DNA of 64,000 bases, from contig OX597832.1 in assembly GCA_951406725.2 (NCBI GenBank), forward strand, positions 5,394,001 through 5,458,000, read 5' to 3'. Origin of the DNA: Octopus vulgaris. Taxonomy: Eukaryota. Shown piece by piece: positions 24,761 through 63,836 of this stretch. A program made the position numbers and the translations under genes. A model generated the notes under the pieces. It saw only the letters and a list, made by a program, of their open reading frames with translations, was not told the DNA's origin and did not search any database. The stretch's first letter is position 1. Each line of letters opens with the position of its first letter.

Positions 24761-25418
24761 ATCTAAAAGATATGTGTGTGTGTGCTTCTGTGTATGCGTA
24801 TGTATGCATGTCTGTGTGTTTGTGTGTATTTTAGGGTGCGCTCGTGTGTATGTATATGTATGTGTGTATGTATGTATGAGTACAAGTGCGTGTGTGTGTG
24901 AGCTGATGGATGTTTATATACTTGAAGAAAACCAAGGCATGTATATATATATGTATGTTTGTATGACTATATGTATATATGTGTATGTATGCGTGTTTAT
25001 TTGTTTATATGACACATAAACACACATACACACACATACACACACCAGACACACATTCACGCACACACATACTCACACATGAGCGCATGCTCATGGCGCT
25101 TCATGTTACTTTTTCTGGATAGAATTTTTCGGTCTACAGAGAATATGTATGGGATCTTTACCTTTTGACCTACAGATTTAGAAAATAATCTTTTGTAACT
25201 AAACACTTTCAAACTTCGGACACTGGTAGAATGTGTCATATAAAACATCTTTTACTCTTAGGGTTGTTGAGAAAAGCTTATATTTACGAAGTTATTTCAC
25301 GTTAACGTTCTCGTATTTCGGTAATTTCAACCAATCAATGACGTGTATTCAGCTGAATAAAATTACTGCTGTTGTTTTCAACAAGAACTTCCGGTGGTGT
25401 ATATTTCGTTTGTCACTG

Positions 25419-25626: not shown

Positions 25627-26564
25627 CCTGAAGAGTACTTGGAGGCACTAGGCGCGTTTTAAAGCCTGTCTAAGCAAGATCTTCAGTGTCTAAAACAATT
25701 ATTAACTAATAACATATGTGTGTGTGTGCGTGTTTGTGTGTGCGTGCGTCTGTATGTGTGTGTGTGTGTGTGTGTATGTGTGTGCGTGCGTGTCTGCACA
25801 TGTGTGTCTGCACGAGGGAGTGTCTGCGCCCGTGTAACTGTTTGTGTATGCAGGTATATAGTGTATATATGAGGTGAGTGCGTATGCGTGTATAACAACT
25901 ATAACAATTTACAATGCGAAATATTTCAAGCCTATTACAAAAAAAGTTGGTCACAGGTTTACTTCGGGAAATAAGAAAGAAACAAATTGAACAGCGGCCG
26001 GCAAATAAAGTGTATTAAATATGGAGCGATAAACGTGAAAGTAATGTCCTAAAATCAAGGATCGCCATATTAATGTCTACTTTTATTTATCTTTTATTTC
26101 TTGTAAATCAAAATTCCTGATAAATATTATCTATGTGGATATATTTTTGACATATAAATCATCACACATACATAGGATCTTTACCTTTTGACCTACAGAT
26201 TTAAAAATAATCTTTTGTAACTAAACACTTTCAAACTTCGGACACTGGTAGAATGTGTCATATGAAACATCTTTTACTCTAAGCATTTTTGAGAAAAACT
26301 TATGTGTATGCATGTGTGTATGTATATCAATATATATAACAAGTTAAAAATAATGGTCATTACATATTTTTCCTTTATTGGAACAAATTTGGCTTACAGT
26401 AGTCATTAGAGGAACATTACTGATAGGTAATGAGAGCTTATGTATTTTGCCCGGATTGAGAAACTATATGTGTATGTGTGTGTGTGTGTGTGTGTGTGCG
26501 TGCGTGCGTGTGTGTGTGTGTGTATGTGTGTGTGTGTATGTGTGTGTCTGTGTGTGCATGTGTA

Positions 26565-33689: not shown

Positions 33690-33947
33690 TACATTCTTTT
33701 ATTCTTTTACTTATTTCAGTCATTTGATTGTGGCCATGCTAGAGCATTACCTTAGAGGGTGTTAGTCGAAGAAATCGACTCCAGGACTTATTCTTTGTAA
33801 GCCCAGTACACACACACACACATATATACGACGGGTTTCTTTCAGTTTTCGTCTACTAAATCTACTCACAAGGATTTCGTTGGCCCGACGCTATAATAGA
33901 AGATACATGCCTAAGGTGCCACGTAGTGGGCCTGAACTCGGAACCAT
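33690..33947 (-). mobile_element. SINE family B, head truncated at a (TA)n/PLE insertion
   Basis: Family motifs; stops at ggaaccat. Confidence 0.85.
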
Positions 33948-34153
33948 ATATATATATATATATATATTTATTATATAGAAGGAGCTTCTACAGGACTAGA
34001 ACTGTTTCATTCAAGAGAAATCTTCCTGAAGATTTCTCTTGAATGAAACAGTTCTAGTCCTGTAGAAGCTCCTTCTATATAATAAATTAATTTTACTCTG
34101 CTATGTATTGAGTACCTTATTTACTGTGGTTAACCCCGAATCAACCCGGGACC

Positions 34154-34216
<63 letters not shown>

Positions 34217-34316
34217 TTCCGAGTTCAGGCCCACTACGTGGCACCTTAGGCATGTATCTTCTATTATAGCGTCGGGCCAACGAAATCCTTGTGAGTAGAT
34301 TTAGTAGACGAAAACT
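33844..34316. repeat. Nested perfect inverted repeats (104-bp outer arms, 60-bp inner arms)
   Basis: 33844-33947 = rc(34213-34316); 33966-34025 = rc(34028-34087). Confidence 0.95.
34026..34063 (+). ncRNA. Hammerhead motif lacking the 5' strand of stem I
   Basis: CTGAAGA-tTTC/tctt/GAAt-GAAA-Cagttcta-GTC-ctgt, beginning exactly at the palindrome centre. Confidence 0.7.
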
Positions 34317-36734: not shown

Positions 36735-36905
36735 CCTCGCCGAGGTCGACTTTGCCTTTCATCCTTTCGGGGTCGATAAATAAAAGTACCAGTTTCGCAC
36801 TGGGGTCGATGTAATCGACTTAATCCCTTTGTCTGTCCTTGTTTGTCCCCTCTATGCTTAGCCCCTTGTGGGCAATAAAGAAATATATATATCTCCATAT
36901 AGTAC

Positions 36906-36954
<49 letters not shown>

Positions 36955-37073
36955 CATATAGTACCAGTTTCGCACTGGGGTCGATGTAATCGACTTAATC
37001 CCTTTGTCTGTCCTTGTTTGTCCCCTCTATGCTTAGCCCCTTGTGGGCAATAAAGAAATATATATATCTCCAT
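36735..37073 (+). mobile_element. SINE family A 3' part, tandemly duplicated across (TA)n
   Basis: 36786-36898 identical to 36961-37073 by eye. Confidence 0.88.
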
Positions 37074-38401: not shown

Positions 38402-38692
38402 TATAACATAAGGAGGATCAGCCATCTATCTGAATGTGGCTAGGGACAGGGCGGGGTGGTGGGTGTGTTACTGATGCATTTAGCCCCAGGCGATCATCGA
38501 CGTCACCAGAAGGGCTGACACCATCACGGTGTCCTTGCCAGGCTGATCTCCCTTTGCAGGCTGGCAAGGACACCGTGATGGTGTCAGCCCTTCTGGTGAC
38601 GTCGATGATCGCATGGGGCTAAATGCATCAGTAACACACCCACCACCCCGCCCTGTCCCTAGCCACATTCAGATGACTGATCTCCCTTATGT

Positions 38693-44760: not shown

Positions 44761-46109
44761 TATTTACTCGTCCGTCTAAACGAAGACGGGAACACGTGGG
44801 GGGGGGGGGAACTAATTGCAGGTGGTGAGCGTTGTTGCATCCGGAAGTGGTCACGCGGTCAAACTCAAATGGTTGTGAGTCACAACTGCAGTTTGTTTTC
44901 TTGTATGAACATTTTGCATAGTTTAGACATGGATGACACAGAAAGCAGACATGCTGCGTTGCGCAGGATTGGAAACGTGAAACATCAACAGAGCACTTCT
45001 GGAGAATGGATGAATGGATTTGTTGTGCCTTTACCCAGTCGCACACACACGCGCATGGCCCGGTGGTGCGCGGGATGATAACATGAAGCATCAACAGGGC
45101 GCCGACAAAAATTTTAATGCTCTCATTTCCTCTGCCAAATTGGACAAAAAGGCTTTCATGAAATATTATTCGCTACTTATAATGCATAAGTAGTGTCAAT
45201 ATTTTATCATCGGAAAATGGCCTAAAGCAAAAATAAAACCCAGTGCTGTATACTCAAATCTGATTAATCTGCATTTTTGTGGGGCCAGAAATTTTTCTAG
45301 TCAACAGAAATTCGAGGAGCTTGATTAATGTTTGTTGTAAATTTGAAGGAAAGCAACTGGATACTCTTCAAATCGCGGGCCTTAACGCTGCGAAAATGCT
45401 TTCATAATGTGGTTTATCTGCCCCTGGGCCCGCATTAAGCAAAAAGTTGAAATTTGTTTTTGTGCATGACACTCCATGGACCCTATGTAATGCATGTGTA
45501 AAATTTCATTAAAATCGGTTAGGTGGATCTCGATTTTTAACGACATGACAAACACAGACAGACACATCCTGTGTCTTATATATATAGAGTATGCACCTTG
45601 TTGGAAAAAATTGGAAATGTGAAAGGAAAATGAGTCTAAGTGACTATTTGTGAAAAAGAAAGAAAGAAAGAAAAATATATCTTCGTATTTTATCAAAGCA
45701 AATAAACTGATGTATTGGTTTGTTTTTGCATAAAGAGTTCATATGAAGTGGAATAAGTTAGTTTAGGACAGTATCAGATACTTAGTATTGTAAACATACT
45801 GGCGTAGAAATAGATTAATAATGAATAAAAGATAAAGTGGAAGAATATAAAAGTGAAAGTGTTTAGCAAACAAACTGGAAATACGCGCAACAACTTTAAA
45901 TGTAGCTTCAAAACAAATAGATGTCATCCTAATCTTTAATCAAAACCAACCTCACGTAATTAATTCACTATATTATCTTTTTGAAGTTTTTGAAGAAGTA
46001 GCACCTTAAGTGAAAGTGGAGGCGCGTGGCTTAGTGGTTAGAGTGTTGGACTCATGGTTGTAAGACTGTGGTTTCTCAGCTGACAAAAATGTGTAATCCT
46101 GCGACGGAC

Positions 46110-46649
46110 GTTGCTAGAAGTGCAGGTGAAGGAGTTAGTTATATGATAGGGACAATGATGGGTGGCTGTGAGGATGGTGGTGTTGGAGAGGTAGGGGCAA
46201 GTGCGGCAGCGTCGGCGGAAACAGGAGAACGAGCTGGATTGGGAGGTAGGGTTAGGGAAGAAACTGTGGACCAGGAGGTCACATAGGTTGTGGGCTCGTT
46301 TGAAGGGGGGAAGGGGTAGGTTGGGGAAGATGTGCGAAGTGGAGGTGTCGGACTGGAGTCGCCGGAAGGCTCGGAGACGTAGGATGGAGGGGTGGTAGGT
46401 GAGGGGAAACGGGAGAGGGTAACGACGAGGCGGGTGCGGGGCGAGAGAGCAGATGCACGGTCCACGGAACGTGATCTGGCAAGGGCGGTGTGGATAGTGG
46501 TGAGGGGATATCCACGAAGGATGAAGTGGTGAGCCATGTGTTGAGACTGAGTTTCAAAGTCATGGTTGTCATTACAGAGCCTGGGCAGACGGAGGAATTG
46601 GGAGTAGGGGATGGAGAGTTTGGTGTGTTTGGGGTGGGAGGGGGAGAAG

Positions 46650-46655
<6 letters not shown>
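46110..46655 (-). mobile_element. Penelope-like ORF fragment (RT thumb, linker, start of GIY-YIG region)
   Basis: SHPKHTKLSIPYSQFLRLPRLC..FILRGYP..PLTYHP..FKRAHNLCDLLVHS..CFRRRCRTCP..FTCTSSNV; abuts (TA)n. Confidence 0.9.
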
Positions 46656-46693
<38 letters not shown>

Positions 46694-46878
46694 TATTTAT
46701 GTATGTATGTATGTATGTATGTATAATTTATAATTAGAGAAAAACCACTATTATGCAATTCAAACAATGATAAACATAAACCAAATCATAAATAAAAAAT
46801 AAAGTATATTTTTTAAAACACATAACAAAAGATCACAAAAAGCACAAAATGAATAAACAATATATAATAAGTAAAGAA

Positions 46879-46979: not shown

Positions 46980-47010
46980 AACATTAATAACAATATTAGT
47001 TAAATAAATC

Positions 47011-47270
47011 AATTGCAGCGTGGAAGGTGTTTATAAGCCATTTAAGAAACACACAAAAACCGTTAGATTCACTTCAACATTTATATTTAATTTGTCAAAA
47101 ATAAATATAAATATAAATATAAATGTTGAAGTGAATCTAACGGTTTTTGTGTGTTTCTTAAATGGCTTAAAAACACCTTCCACGCTGCAATTGTTTTCGT
47201 TCTAGCACACGATCTCAGATCAAGTCACTCGCTGTGCAAGTACATCTCCGTAAAGTTAAATAAATAATAT
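47011..47270. mobile_element. Asymmetric fold-back mini-element (PLE-like)
   Basis: 47011-47078 = rc(about 47115-47191), near-identical; right arm continues ~75 bp to a TA run. Confidence 0.7.
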
Positions 47271-59115: not shown

Positions 59116-59179
59116 TCTTCTTCACTGTTCTTAAATAATATGCATATGTTGTGCTAGACAAAAAGCATCAAACATTACG

Positions 59180-60407
59180 TATATTTACTTATTTTCCTTT
59201 ATTTACTTATTCATCTCTCTATTTTCCCCCATTTCATCTTTAGGTTTTTCAGAGGTACAGCCCCCTAAAAACCCCCTGCGTATTATTCCAGTTTAACGGA
59301 GGATTTGTGTTCGCGGAGAGTGTTGGCGAAATTCTCCCCCAAGATGCTGGCGGACATAAAGCTAAAGATCAGTGAAAAAGAATGCCTACGCTGAACTATT
59401 GAGAAATCTAGAATTATTCCATCCAGATTACAAGTTCGGGTTTATACTTGTAATTGTTAGGGCCCTGGAATATGTAACACCGTATGTCTCATTTTTTCCT
59501 CCCATTCTGTCTTTAGTCGTCATGTTACTTAGTTTGGTGGTGATGTGTGTTATTGTTCCATTCGTGCTTTCTGTTGAGGTTCGGTCTCTATATTACTATC
59601 TCTATTTGTAATCTGTCTAAGTGTCATGTCTGTTTTATGCGTTGATAATACCTTAACTTCTATGTTATTAACTGAACCCCTACGTTCTAATTGAAAATGT
59701 TGATAGATCACTAACGAGCCTTTCTCCTCTTTGAGCTCCCGCCAGTGTACAGCTATATTACGTGCTGTCTCACCATTGTAAGTTGCCTTGTTTCTGCAGC
59801 GTCCCTCAGTACACTGTATGCTACACTCCTAATCTTGCAGTTAAACTGTGGGTTGATCCATCCTGCATACTATACATTTGTTCTCCGTACACAGGGGCTT
59901 TCGACTGGACATGTCCTACAGATCAAGGATTTTACGGGGGTTCCTGGCTTTTCTACTACTTCAGTCCGTAGATTTACCTTATCTAATGTTTTCCTAAAAA
60001 GATATGTATGCAGTTCTCTAGCTACAGCCAAAGGGAAAGAATTAGAGTGTACATAGGTCGGTCTAAGTACAAGGCTATCATAAAGATTGATGCAAATGGG
60101 ATCTGCCTGCTATAAGGAGTAAATCTTGGAACAGCATAGAAAGGCCCAAGAAAAAGAGAGGTAAGTCCAAATCATGGTATGACAATCAAATATACCAGTG
60201 TCATGTTAATGCTACCCCTGGCGGCGAACTAGCAAATACGACATAGTAATAGACAGACTGAGCCTTAACAGAAACACGAATGGAACAATAACATCCACCA
60301 CCACCACCACCATCACCACCACACTACAGAACATGACGACTAGAGACAGAACAGGAGAAGAATGAGACAAAGATACAAACAGATAAAAGCAGTGTAATAC
60401 ATTAACC

Positions 60408-60445
<38 letters not shown>

Positions 60446-60545
60446 ACACACATACACATACTTAAGATGGAATGGGGTAAAATAGAAAGATGATTAAGTA
60501 AATGAATAAATAAATAAATAGATAAATAAATAGTATATATATATA
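59180..60545 (-). mobile_element. Rearranged Penelope-like element (GIY-YIG on minus, RT C-terminus inverted)
   Basis: Minus 59998-59540: FRKTLDKVNLRTEVVEKPG..CIVC..YNGETAR..LRQIT..PNLNRKHEW; plus 59999-60237: MQFSSYSQRER..KSKSWY..ATPGGELAN; terminal repeat inverted at 60235-60545. Confidence 0.75.
59239..59482. other. Templated insertion chain from three nearby loci
   Basis: 59239-59286 = 62931-62978; 59285-59355 = rc(63267-63337); 59354-59482 = 61482-61610. Confidence 0.9.
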
Positions 60546-60731: not shown

Positions 60732-61139
60732 GATGCCACTGCATGCGCAGATAGGGATACATACCATAGAAAAATAGAATAGTCTAAACATACATAAACA
60801 CAGATACACACCGTATGTATGTGTCTATGTATGTATGTATGTGATTACACACGCTTGCATGCGTGCGTGCACGCACATTTACAGGCAAAATCGAAAAAGA
60901 ATAAAGAAAATTGTTTAAATCGTTTCATTCCTTATGACAGTTTCAACAAAAGAAATATAATTTCACTTTATCATGAAAATGTTAGATTTAAAGGGATAAT
61001 TAAATTTAAAACTCTCATAAGTACTCACAACATAGAAAATAATGATAAGAAGGGAAGCTTGATGAGATAAACAGGCTGTCACAAATCATAACTGAAAAAG
61101 ATAAAAATATGAAGTTTCATTTACTCAGAATAGTTCAGT

Positions 61140-61890
61140 AGTTTTAAGAAGGATATATGTTGGTACAGGTGAACTCGGAAAATGAAAGTTACATCAAAAG
61201 AAACGTTTACAATTATGAAAATAACGTAAAGGCAATAGTGACAAAGGATATAGTATGCATACATACATATAATGAGATCTGTCGGAAGGATAACTCCGGG
61301 GAGAAAGTAATGAGAACCCACTGTATAGTGGAAGCCATAACCACTCATAATAAAAGGGGGTACAAGTGGAATGTCCTAGTGAAATCTCAATAAAATGTGA
61401 ACATAATAGACCTGACATAGTGACTGAGGACAGAGAAGAGAAACTGTAGAGTTGCGGAAATCAGCAACCCAACGGATGTTAACATAAAGCTAAAGATCAG
61501 TGAAAAAGAATGCCTACGCTGAACTATTGAGAAATCTAGAATTACTCCATCCACATTACAAGTTCGGGTTTATACTTGTAATTGTTAGGGCCCTGGAATA
61601 TGTAACACCGCCTAAATACCAGTCTTGAGAAATTAGGCTACTCAAAACAAGAGAGAAAGCTGATTCGAAGACTACAGATCCAAGCCATCACCGGAACTGT
61701 AAAAATCTGTAAAACTTTTCAGAAGTTTAGCATTTAAGTATATATATATGAGCATGTCTAGACATGCAACTATATGCATGAGAATACATACATAAAACAA
61801 GGAATACAAATCTGCATATATATACATACATGCATTCAGGCATCAATACATACATACATACATACATACATACATACATACATACATACA
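61140..61890 (+). mobile_element. 3' fragment of RLE-type LINE (same family as 6143-6985)
   Basis: YNEICRKDN..IVEAITTHNK..HNRPDIV..TGTVKICKTFQKF; ends in (TACA)n. Confidence 0.85.
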
Positions 61891-61929
61891 TAGGAAACAA
61901 GCAGGCATTTGACACTGTGCTTCATCCAA

Positions 61930-62300
61930 GGGTGCTAGAATCGCTATACCTTGCCAAAGCACTCATTAATGTCGTTGAAAGACTAATCACATGGTTCACA
62001 CATTGATCCCTAACAACTGAAACAACACCTATAGTCACAAAAGGAATTAGGTTATCAGCGGGAATATTCCAGGGTGATAGTTTATCTGTAATGTTTGTAC
62101 TGACAGTGAACTCGTTGTCAGCCCTGTTAACGAAATGCCAAGGCTATATGCTGAGATATGCAGAAAATAATAAAATTAATATCACCCACACATTTTTTGT
62201 TGATGACCTAAAGTTTTATCGTGGTAACATGAACACCATCAAAGCAATTAGAACACGTCACAACTTTCTCACAGACCATAGAAATATGTCATAGCCAAAG
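61930..62300 (+). mobile_element. RT fragment of R4/Dong-like LINE
   Basis: GIFQGDSLS..VNSLS..ITHTFFVDDLKFY. Confidence 0.8.
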
Positions 62301-62390
62301 GAAGAAAGATTGTCGTCAGTCTATTTGCGTATCTGTAAAAATTTGTATGACTTTCTAAAGGTTCTTCACCTGAGATACTTTAAAGGAGTA

Positions 62391-63836
62391 TAAGGTGCGT
62401 TCAAAAAGTATCTGACTTCATTTTTCCTGTCAAAATGAATGCCGCATAAGCAAAATCCTTTGGCTGAGAAGGGAATTCACTTTTCCTTCGTACCGTAAAT
62501 CCTCGAGTATAATCCGCATTTTCTCCCCAAAATTTAAAGGTCAAAATCCCTAGTGCGTACTATATACGAGGCTAAAAATGAAAATTATTTTCTAAGCAAT
62601 GTCCAAGTCTCTATTTGCTGCCCGGCAATGCTTATTCAGACGCATTTTGTGGTGTCGGGTGCGAAAATACCTTAAGCTAAGCCAGTAAGCAATGAAGTCA
62701 TAAAAGAATCATTCATAACATGCAGTAAGCAACATTTATTAAATGTTATTACTGTTATTACTGTTATTTCTTTATTTTCTGCAAACAAAATGCACAAAAA
62801 AGCTACACGTTTGCATTATGTTATATATACAATAATAATAAAGGACGTTACCGTATAGTTTTACAAACCAAGGACGTTATATAGACCTCCTTGACTCAAG
62901 TTAGAGAAGGGGTGCGTATTATACACAAGGTTTAGGTTTTTCAGAGGTACAGCCCCCTAAAAATCCCCTGCGTATTATACTCAAGGGCGGACTATACTCG
63001 AGGATTTACGGTATACGCGTAAATTTTCGCGCCGGTAGGATGCATCATTTCCCGGTTAGAATACACTTAGAGTATTACACCTAGAGTACAGACGTGTGGT
63101 GCGCGCTAGTCGGATTTCCGTTTACACGTAATTTGACCGAACGCGTCAAGCAGAGACCATAAACATATGCTTCATCACCAGTGATGATGGTTTTTATGAA
63201 GTATGAGTCGTGGCTTGCACAGTCCAACATAGCCTGAGTGATTTCCATGCGGAGTTGCTTCTCCTGGTCCGCCAGCATCTTGGGGGCGAATTTCGCCAAC
63301 ACTCTCCGCGAACACAAATCCTCCGTTAAACTGGAATGCACTGATCCTGTGCTTGCTCCCACTTCGTGTGCAGTTTCCTGGATTATTATAAGACGATCTT
63401 GCATGATTGCTCGATCCTTGTTTCGGTTCCTTGCTTCGGCTGGTGGATGGCATGCCTGAGAGTGTCTCGCCCTCCACTGAGGCGCGGCCGTGCTTGAAGC
63501 GGTTGTACCACTCCGTGATCTGAGTTTTGCTCATGGCATCATCGCCAAAGGCCTGCTGAATCTTCTGGATGGTTTGAACTAGAGTATCACAAAGCTTTTA
63601 GCTAAACTTGATGCAATATCTCTGCTCGATGTGTTCGGTGAAAACGAAAATCCTACGAACACGCACTACACGCTTGTACTCTAGGTGTGACAGCCGGGAA
63701 CTGGCACAGCCTACCAAAGCAAACACTTTCAAGCGCGCGCAGGAAGGGTGACGTCACTTTTTAACCAAAGGATTTTGACAACCTGGTACTAGTTTGATGG
63801 GGAAAATAAAGTCTGATAGTTTTTGAATGCACCTCG
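62391..63836 (-). mobile_element. Internally deleted mariner element
   Basis: TA flanks, ~45-bp imperfect TIRs; EQRYCIKF..WYNRFKHGR..AKFAPKML..IITGDEAYVYG. Confidence 0.92.
62493..63011. mobile_element. TA-TSD MITE (Tc2/pogo-like) nested in the mariner
   Basis: TA-CCGTAAATCCTCGAGTATA ... TATACTCGAGGATTTACGG-TA; subterminal gcgtattatac repeats. Confidence 0.92.

Follow-up and report, generated by a model that had tools for sequence, protein, structure and literature searches.

The patchwork, its donors, and its host repeat

In the 64-kb stretch of Octopus vulgaris DNA analysed here (hereafter, the window), a patchwork of 244 bp is located at positions 59239–59482. It has no strand of its own and consists of three abutting copied pieces, identified by comparing the window to itself. 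Piece A (59239–59286, plus strand, 48 bp) is an internal, subterminal part of a TA-flanked MITE, and it matches positions 62931–62978 in direct orientation with 47/48 identical nucleotides (mismatch at 59272). Piece B (59285–59355, minus strand) is 71 bp of mariner transposase coding sequence in inverted orientation, matching 63337–63267 with 70/71 identical nucleotides (mismatch at 59335). Lastly, piece C (59354–59482, plus strand) comprises 129 bp of a decayed non-LTR retroelement, taken from its 3′ (endonuclease) end, and it matches 61482–61610 in direct orientation with 127/129 identical nucleotides (mismatches at 59417 and 59426). Across the pieces, the identity to the donors is 98%. An earlier note on this DNA, made from the sequence alone, had reported these same coordinates and mismatch counts, which we reproduced exactly. 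When the whole window was scanned for chains of abutting copies, considering non-simple-repeat matches of at least 30 bp at 95% identity or more, this was the only three-piece chain present.

All three donors are located 2.0–3.9 kb downstream of the patch, inside one 1.9-kb zone, and all are still intact within larger elements. The donor of piece C (61482–61610, plus strand) is within a LINE 3′ fragment at about 61268–61730, the likely donor of piece A (62931–62978, plus strand) is within a MITE at 62493–63011, and the donor of piece B (63267–63337, minus strand) is within an internally deleted, frameshifted mariner at 62391–63836. The MITE, which has 27-bp inverted ends counting the flanking TA, is inserted inside this mariner, and 359 bp separate the end of donor A from the start of donor B, i.e., the next priming site. 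The donor mariner contains the Pfam HTH_48 domain and matches a transposase at 56%.

In general, the region 61268–63836 is a nested stack including the LINE 3′ end, a (TACA)n tract, a LINE reverse transcriptase fragment, the deleted mariner, which has long imperfect inverted ends, and the MITE inside it. The LINE that gave piece C is a putative Dong-R4 element, on the basis of motif likeness. The Pfam search of the two LINE fragments found no domain, and the LINE paralog at 6.5 kb matches an Octopus bimaculoides protein at 67%. As regards the MITE, piece A corresponds to the unit between its subterminal direct repeats, and in two of the sequencing runs described below (X2 and X19), some MITE copies have this unit tandemly repeated, with a joint running from 59286 to 59239 across 8 intervening letters.

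The patch interrupts a repeat, which forms its left flank (59175–59238) and continues in its right flank (59483–59608), neither with an assigned strand. This host is a dispersed repeat family: the summed depth over the flanks ranges from hundreds to ~6000, versus ~55 for single contigs (runs X1/X2). An inverted paralog of the host repeat, at 60233–60529 on the minus strand, was used as a stand-in for the pre-event state. The flanks of the patch are colinear with this paralog, which contains, in place of the patch, 92 bp that include a (TG)n tract, and reads TTAA/TA at the left junction. In both X1 and X2, the joint 59218→59547 corresponds to a paralog contig passing from the left into the right flank. 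Since the flanks belong to a dispersed family, we infer the loss of ~90 bp, and of the (TG)n tract, from the paralog. The earlier note proposed the replacement of roughly 90 bp relative to an inverted twin; this twin is a paralog of 76–84% identity, through which the loss is seen indirectly. We also considered that the twin could have originated by local inverted duplication, which is less likely as the read depth shows a dispersed family.

Neither a target-site duplication nor a poly(A) tail was found on inspection of the sequence at the patch junctions. Stops are present in every plus-strand frame across the patch, and none of the 99 sub-threshold matches obtained by the Rfam search on 33500–64000 falls on it. 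The patch is likely without function.

The overlaps at the two inner junctions are exact and of 2 nt each: AT between A and B, and AC between B and C. Judged by the inverted paralog, the overlap is 2 nt (TT) at the left junction and 0–1 nt at the right one. Of the three microhomologies reported in the earlier note (ttt, at, and ac), the latter two are exact, and the first is to be shortened from 3 to 2 nt. Under random joining of local DNA, an overlap of at least 2 nt arises by chance with P = 0.17 per junction; the probability is 0.03 for the two inner overlaps and 0.005 for three junctions, so that microhomology is modest evidence. A fourth template was also considered on the basis of an 11-mer at 60808–60818, identical to the right junction; we discarded it as unproven, such a match being found at 7.7% of 918 control positions.

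Local origin, age, and presence in sequenced samples

The presence of the patch was evaluated on the assembled contigs of 4 of the 24 listed runs, each from a different sample and study and with its own organism label. The four runs (X1, X2, X19, and X20) were compared over positions 59125–60400, a stretch lying outside the donors; the runs with a word share of 0.07 (organism C) fell outside this comparison. All four are close to the window, mostly with 0–2 differences on long pieces, and there is no outgroup among them; one may be the source of the assembly itself, and the low word share of X20 is due to low depth.

The right junction was bridged in 4/4 runs, with at least 31 nt on either side and 0–2 other letters. 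The B/C junction was found inside a 79-bp contig with 0 differences in 3/4 runs (X2, X19, and X20), with 28 nt on the C side, which is below the 31-nt bridging rule. This contig begins 30 nt before the scar-specific position 59335 and stops at the first words common with donor C, which is what the presence of both donors in those samples would predict. Its depth is comparable to that of the flanks (57.7 versus 48.5–58 in X2), and the depth of the right-junction contig in X1 (83.7) agrees with the 1.36-fold uplift to be expected when its words are shared by the scar and exactly one donor. In general, the junction contigs have about flank depth, whereas pieces A and C sum to 1e4–1e5 (X1/X2). The left and A/B junctions were not found among the 32 contig pieces listed of 5530, and the pre-event (empty) allele, corresponding to the joint 59238→59483, was not found among the 15 joints listed of 31. 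The patch is present in 4/4 runs examined, a view of polymorphism that is limited as contigs drop rare variants.

The earlier note had indicated spanning reads, a pre-event allele, and the possible dispersal of the chimera among the points to verify. The right and B/C junctions are present in contigs of other runs, with the left and A/B ones absent from the pieces listed; the joints listed gave no pre-event allele; and the two junctions, occurring at about single-copy depth, make a dispersed repeat very unlikely. For the patch taken whole, none of the refuting outcomes named in the note applied.

Then, we compared the pieces to the families of their donors. In 4/4 runs, the LINE family majority has a letter other than that of the patch at 59384 (93–96% of depth), 59411 (78–94%), 59413 (59–87%), and 59420 (87–99%), and at all of these positions the patch is identical to the local donor. 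Further differences common to the patch and the local donor, found on the loose-end consensuses and the 6.5-kb copy, are near 59375, 59410, 59456–59469, and 59481. Having at least four private variants in common with it, piece C was copied from the local donor. Coherently with the earlier note, which held this piece to be closer to the local copy, the copy at 6.5 kb matches it at 82% over 106 bp only.

The family of piece B is low-copy, with a summed depth of 32–643. The summed depth of piece A reaches 2e5–6e5 in X1/X2, thousands of times the single-copy depth. At 59272, the letter of this piece is that of most of the MITE family, and it is the local MITE that deviates, as indicated indirectly by there being no other-letter row at this position. 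Because piece A agrees with the majority of a very high-copy family, unlike the local MITE, distant copies match it better. Its local origin is likely on account of position and nothing else, given that its donor lies 359 bp from the start of B. The best matches were presumed to be local in the earlier note; judged by read depth and family letters, this holds for the LINE piece, with the private variants of the local donor, and fails for the MITE piece, which is nearer to distant family copies.

Two of the four mismatches are on the scar side, 59417 on the basis of the family majority and 59335 on the basis of protein parsimony with a transposase, and two are on the donor side (59426 and 59272). 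The occurrence of mismatches on both copy and donor is as expected for an old copy event. Four mismatches in 248 bp correspond to 0.8% per lineage (95% range 0.2–2.1%). Borrowing the rate of 0.0036 per Myr that appears in the work of PMC13282606, the age of the patch would be roughly 2.2 Myr (0.6–5.7), and standing polymorphism could be behind part of the divergence.

Probable serial template switching and its alternatives

Taken together, we consider it probable, although far from certain, that one germline break was repaired by serial template switching of the MMBIR/FoSTeS type, giving a local bridge of templated insertions. The earlier note had suggested a repair scar produced by either polymerase theta or MMBIR/FoSTeS. 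A germline, local, serial-copy scar is still the best reading, and classic polymerase theta fits it less well than MMBIR/FoSTeS, because its inserts are ~2–35 bp and come from within ~40 bp of the break.

According to this model, the break would have occurred at or near the (TG)n tract, and the broken DNA end would have primed on 2-nt matches, copied 48–129 bases, released, and re-primed on the next local template. The last copy would have rejoined the host repeat, with the likely loss of ~90 bp. As a working model, the right-hand end may have been resected far, leaving the minus strand bared over 2–4 kb, which would account for the one-sided donors and for the direct orientation of pieces A and C. 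For piece B, the farthest and the only inverted one, synthesis could have switched strands at a fork or close to the resection front. Then, the patch would have drifted to high frequency. The transposon content would be incidental, since those sequences lay nearby.

In this reconstruction, we infer the single event, the polymerase, and the direction of synthesis, the last of which is unreadable from the product. The divergence is alike among the pieces (1/48, 1/71, and 2/129), which is compatible with a single event and no proof of it. As outlined in PMC2621351, MMBIR predicts overlaps of 2–5 bp, inversions, nearby single-stranded templates, several switches, and deletion on return. Template switching and end joining are described as hard to separate from junctions in PMC3638133.

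The main rival is that free local fragments (flaps, Okazaki pieces, or resection products), coming from 61.4–63.4 kb or from the sister chromatid, were ligated by end joining. The near-blunt right junction, judged against the twin, agrees with this, and so do the multi-fragment cases described in yeast, with NHEJ-like overlaps of 0 to a few nt and one locus giving two inverted fragments (PMC11724301); an Okazaki origin of TST pieces is also raised by Umbreit et al. (10.1101/835058). In the account of PMC11724301, however, the yeast insertions are genome-wide in origin and raised in nuclease/RPA mutants, while the donors of the patch are all cis-local and located on the same side, and at least 2 nt of overlap are found at three junctions, with a joint P of ~0.005 provided that the left overlap, judged by the twin, is correct. 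On balance, the capture of fragments is unlikely, even if it deserves to be kept in mind.

A second alternative is that more than one event took place, or that piece A derives from another MITE, either a distant copy or one formerly inserted at the site, so that only B and C are local. It would explain why piece A has the majority letter of a family with very high summed depth and the local MITE an odd one. Furthermore, the TTAA/TA of the twin at the left junction is a possible transposon target, TTAA and TA being sequences preferred by transposons. Against this, piece A is without both MITE ends, and the local MITE is inside the same mariner that gives B, with the next priming site 359 bp away. 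Since C has a donor-side change too, one in A is unremarkable. We regard a stepwise or partly distant origin as distinctly unlikely.

Only a slender chance is left for a LINE reverse transcriptase having patched the break from local RNA with template switches, either as a class 2 TSIP or by an endonuclease-independent route. Class 2 TSIPs, as characterised in PMC5110952, are without target-site duplication and poly(A) and have microdeletion and microhomology, and Dong-R4 and RTE LINEs are described as recently active in Octopus vulgaris (PMC13282606). Still, the TSIs of PMC5110952 come from distant regions, and the pieces of the patch are on both strands and out of transcript order, so that both sense and antisense templates would be needed.

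Finally, a chimera produced during assembly or library preparation, or a composite dispersed repeat resembling the local copies by chance, would fit the absence of two of the four junctions from the contig pieces listed, but both are very unlikely and hardly credible because the other two, the right one in 4/4 runs (4 studies) and the B/C one in 3/4, occur at about single-copy depth, with mutations on both copy and donor also opposing an artefact.

Other local copies and comparison with known systems

The window contains other repeated segments. Positions 33844–33967 and 34193–34316 are 124-bp inverted copies with 100% identity, beside a (TA)n tract, and between them, at 33966–34087, there is a perfect hairpin, whose arms are 60 bp long and whose loop is of 2 nt. 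Its arm presumably includes a core resembling the hammerhead of Penelope-type ends; in the Rfam search on 33500–64000, no hammerhead was matched. Fold-backs are present at 38428–38674 (arms of ~114 bp, one mismatch, 19-nt loop) and at 47010–47193 (arms of ~80 bp, one mismatch), the latter near a decayed ORF (46038–46785) that, in our judgement, resembles Penelope GIY-YIG elements. At 36785–37073, there is a 114-bp direct duplication with 100% identity, whose copies are separated by short iterated pieces and an expanded (TA)n; from its sequence, it resembles the iterative scars of the classic, short-range polymerase-theta type. A further direct pair of 130 bp (25152–25281 and 26175–26303, 95% identity), spaced by 0.9 kb, is possibly an older local copy; a relative at 72% is located at 16.4 kb.

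Kilobase-range serial template jumping is known mostly from tumours and disease rearrangements. Besides the patch, the window contains four or more near-perfect local copies (those at 33.8–34.3, 36.8–37.1, 38.5, and 47.1 kb), and these are the basis for a broader reading, in which such jumping would be routine in the octopus germline and would write chimeric repeats from neighbouring transposons. We hold this reading as doubtful, and the four other local copies may be transposon-made. If it were true, tens of thousands of such scars would be expected genome-wide, providing a natural data set for the rules of donor distance, side, and strand. If common in octopus, the process would be a source of chimeric repeats other than transposition, transposon counts would be inflated by fragments that had not moved by transposition, and mutants would not be needed to test the resection model through its one-sided donors and strand bias.

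Alone, the patch matters little, as a single scar, likely neutral, within repeat DNA. Its value as a clean natural example comes from its donors, which are recognisable, and from a copy that is polarised, roughly dated, and common to several samples. This suggests that multi-jump copying over 2–4 kb passes through the mollusc germline and persists. In our literature search, no paper was found on templated insertion in octopus genomes; the search likewise found none on filler-DNA patchworks by nearby template switching.

The patch belongs to a known, well-described class of event. Templates in human germline deletions are also relevant here: Abyzov et al. 2015 reportedly found those of micro-insertions at tens of bp and at ~2–6 kb, mostly as single short inserts. 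The latter range matches that of the patch, which is three-part and not a single insert.

Breakpoint insertions in the germline are put at ~5% of human variants in PMC3638133. TMEJ, as presented in PMC4490562 and PMC7202663, resembles the patch in being germline and heritable, with a templated insert, minimal overlap, and a deletion, which in the patch is likely, and it shapes wild C. elegans genomes, with scars abundant in wild nematodes (PMC4490562). However, its inserts are given as derived from within 40 bp of the junction (PMC7202663) and as 2–35 bp long (PMC11724301), whereas the pieces of the patch are 48–129 bp from 2.0–3.9 kb away. Similarly, the class 2 TSIPs described in PMC5110952 are germline patches that have microdeletion and microhomology and are devoid of target-site duplication and poly(A), but their donors are distant and they are ascribed to RNA, while the patch is local, three-part, and on both strands. 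A class 1 TSIP or retrocopy has a target-site duplication and a poly(A) tail, and the patch has neither. The TST jumps reported by Umbreit et al. (10.1101/835058) are alike in their tandem short copies from a 2–3 kb hotspot. On the other hand, their chains are described as linking distant hotspots through 8–14 templates with a median of 183–199 bp, and as tied to chromosome bridges and chromothripsis; the patch has three pieces from one zone and none of those features.

The closest likeness is found with the bridges of templated insertions of Li et al. 2020 (PMC7025897), in whose scheme a returning string of templates that leaves a gap is a bridge and a string of all-local templates is an n-jump. 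As in the patch, the template string returns to the host, the donors are kept, and the templates are local, with inverted and direct junctions mixed; the gap left would correspond here to the 92 bp missing against the paralog. That description concerns human tumours and copy-number data, while the patch is germline, has pieces of 48–129 bp, and occurs in several samples of a mollusc. MMBIR/FoSTeS, in the formulation of Hastings et al. 2009 (PMC2621351), shares the several nearby switches and the inversion, while its overlaps of 2–5 bp and its deletion on return would correspond here to the 2-nt inner overlaps and to the loss judged by the paralog; it was built for large human copy-number changes, and here the right junction is without clear overlap. 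Overall, the patch does not have the defining features of classic TMEJ, TST jumps, or class 2 TSIPs, and it works like an MMBIR-type local bridge, being made of copies with intact donors and local templates, of which that of piece A is unassignable by identity.
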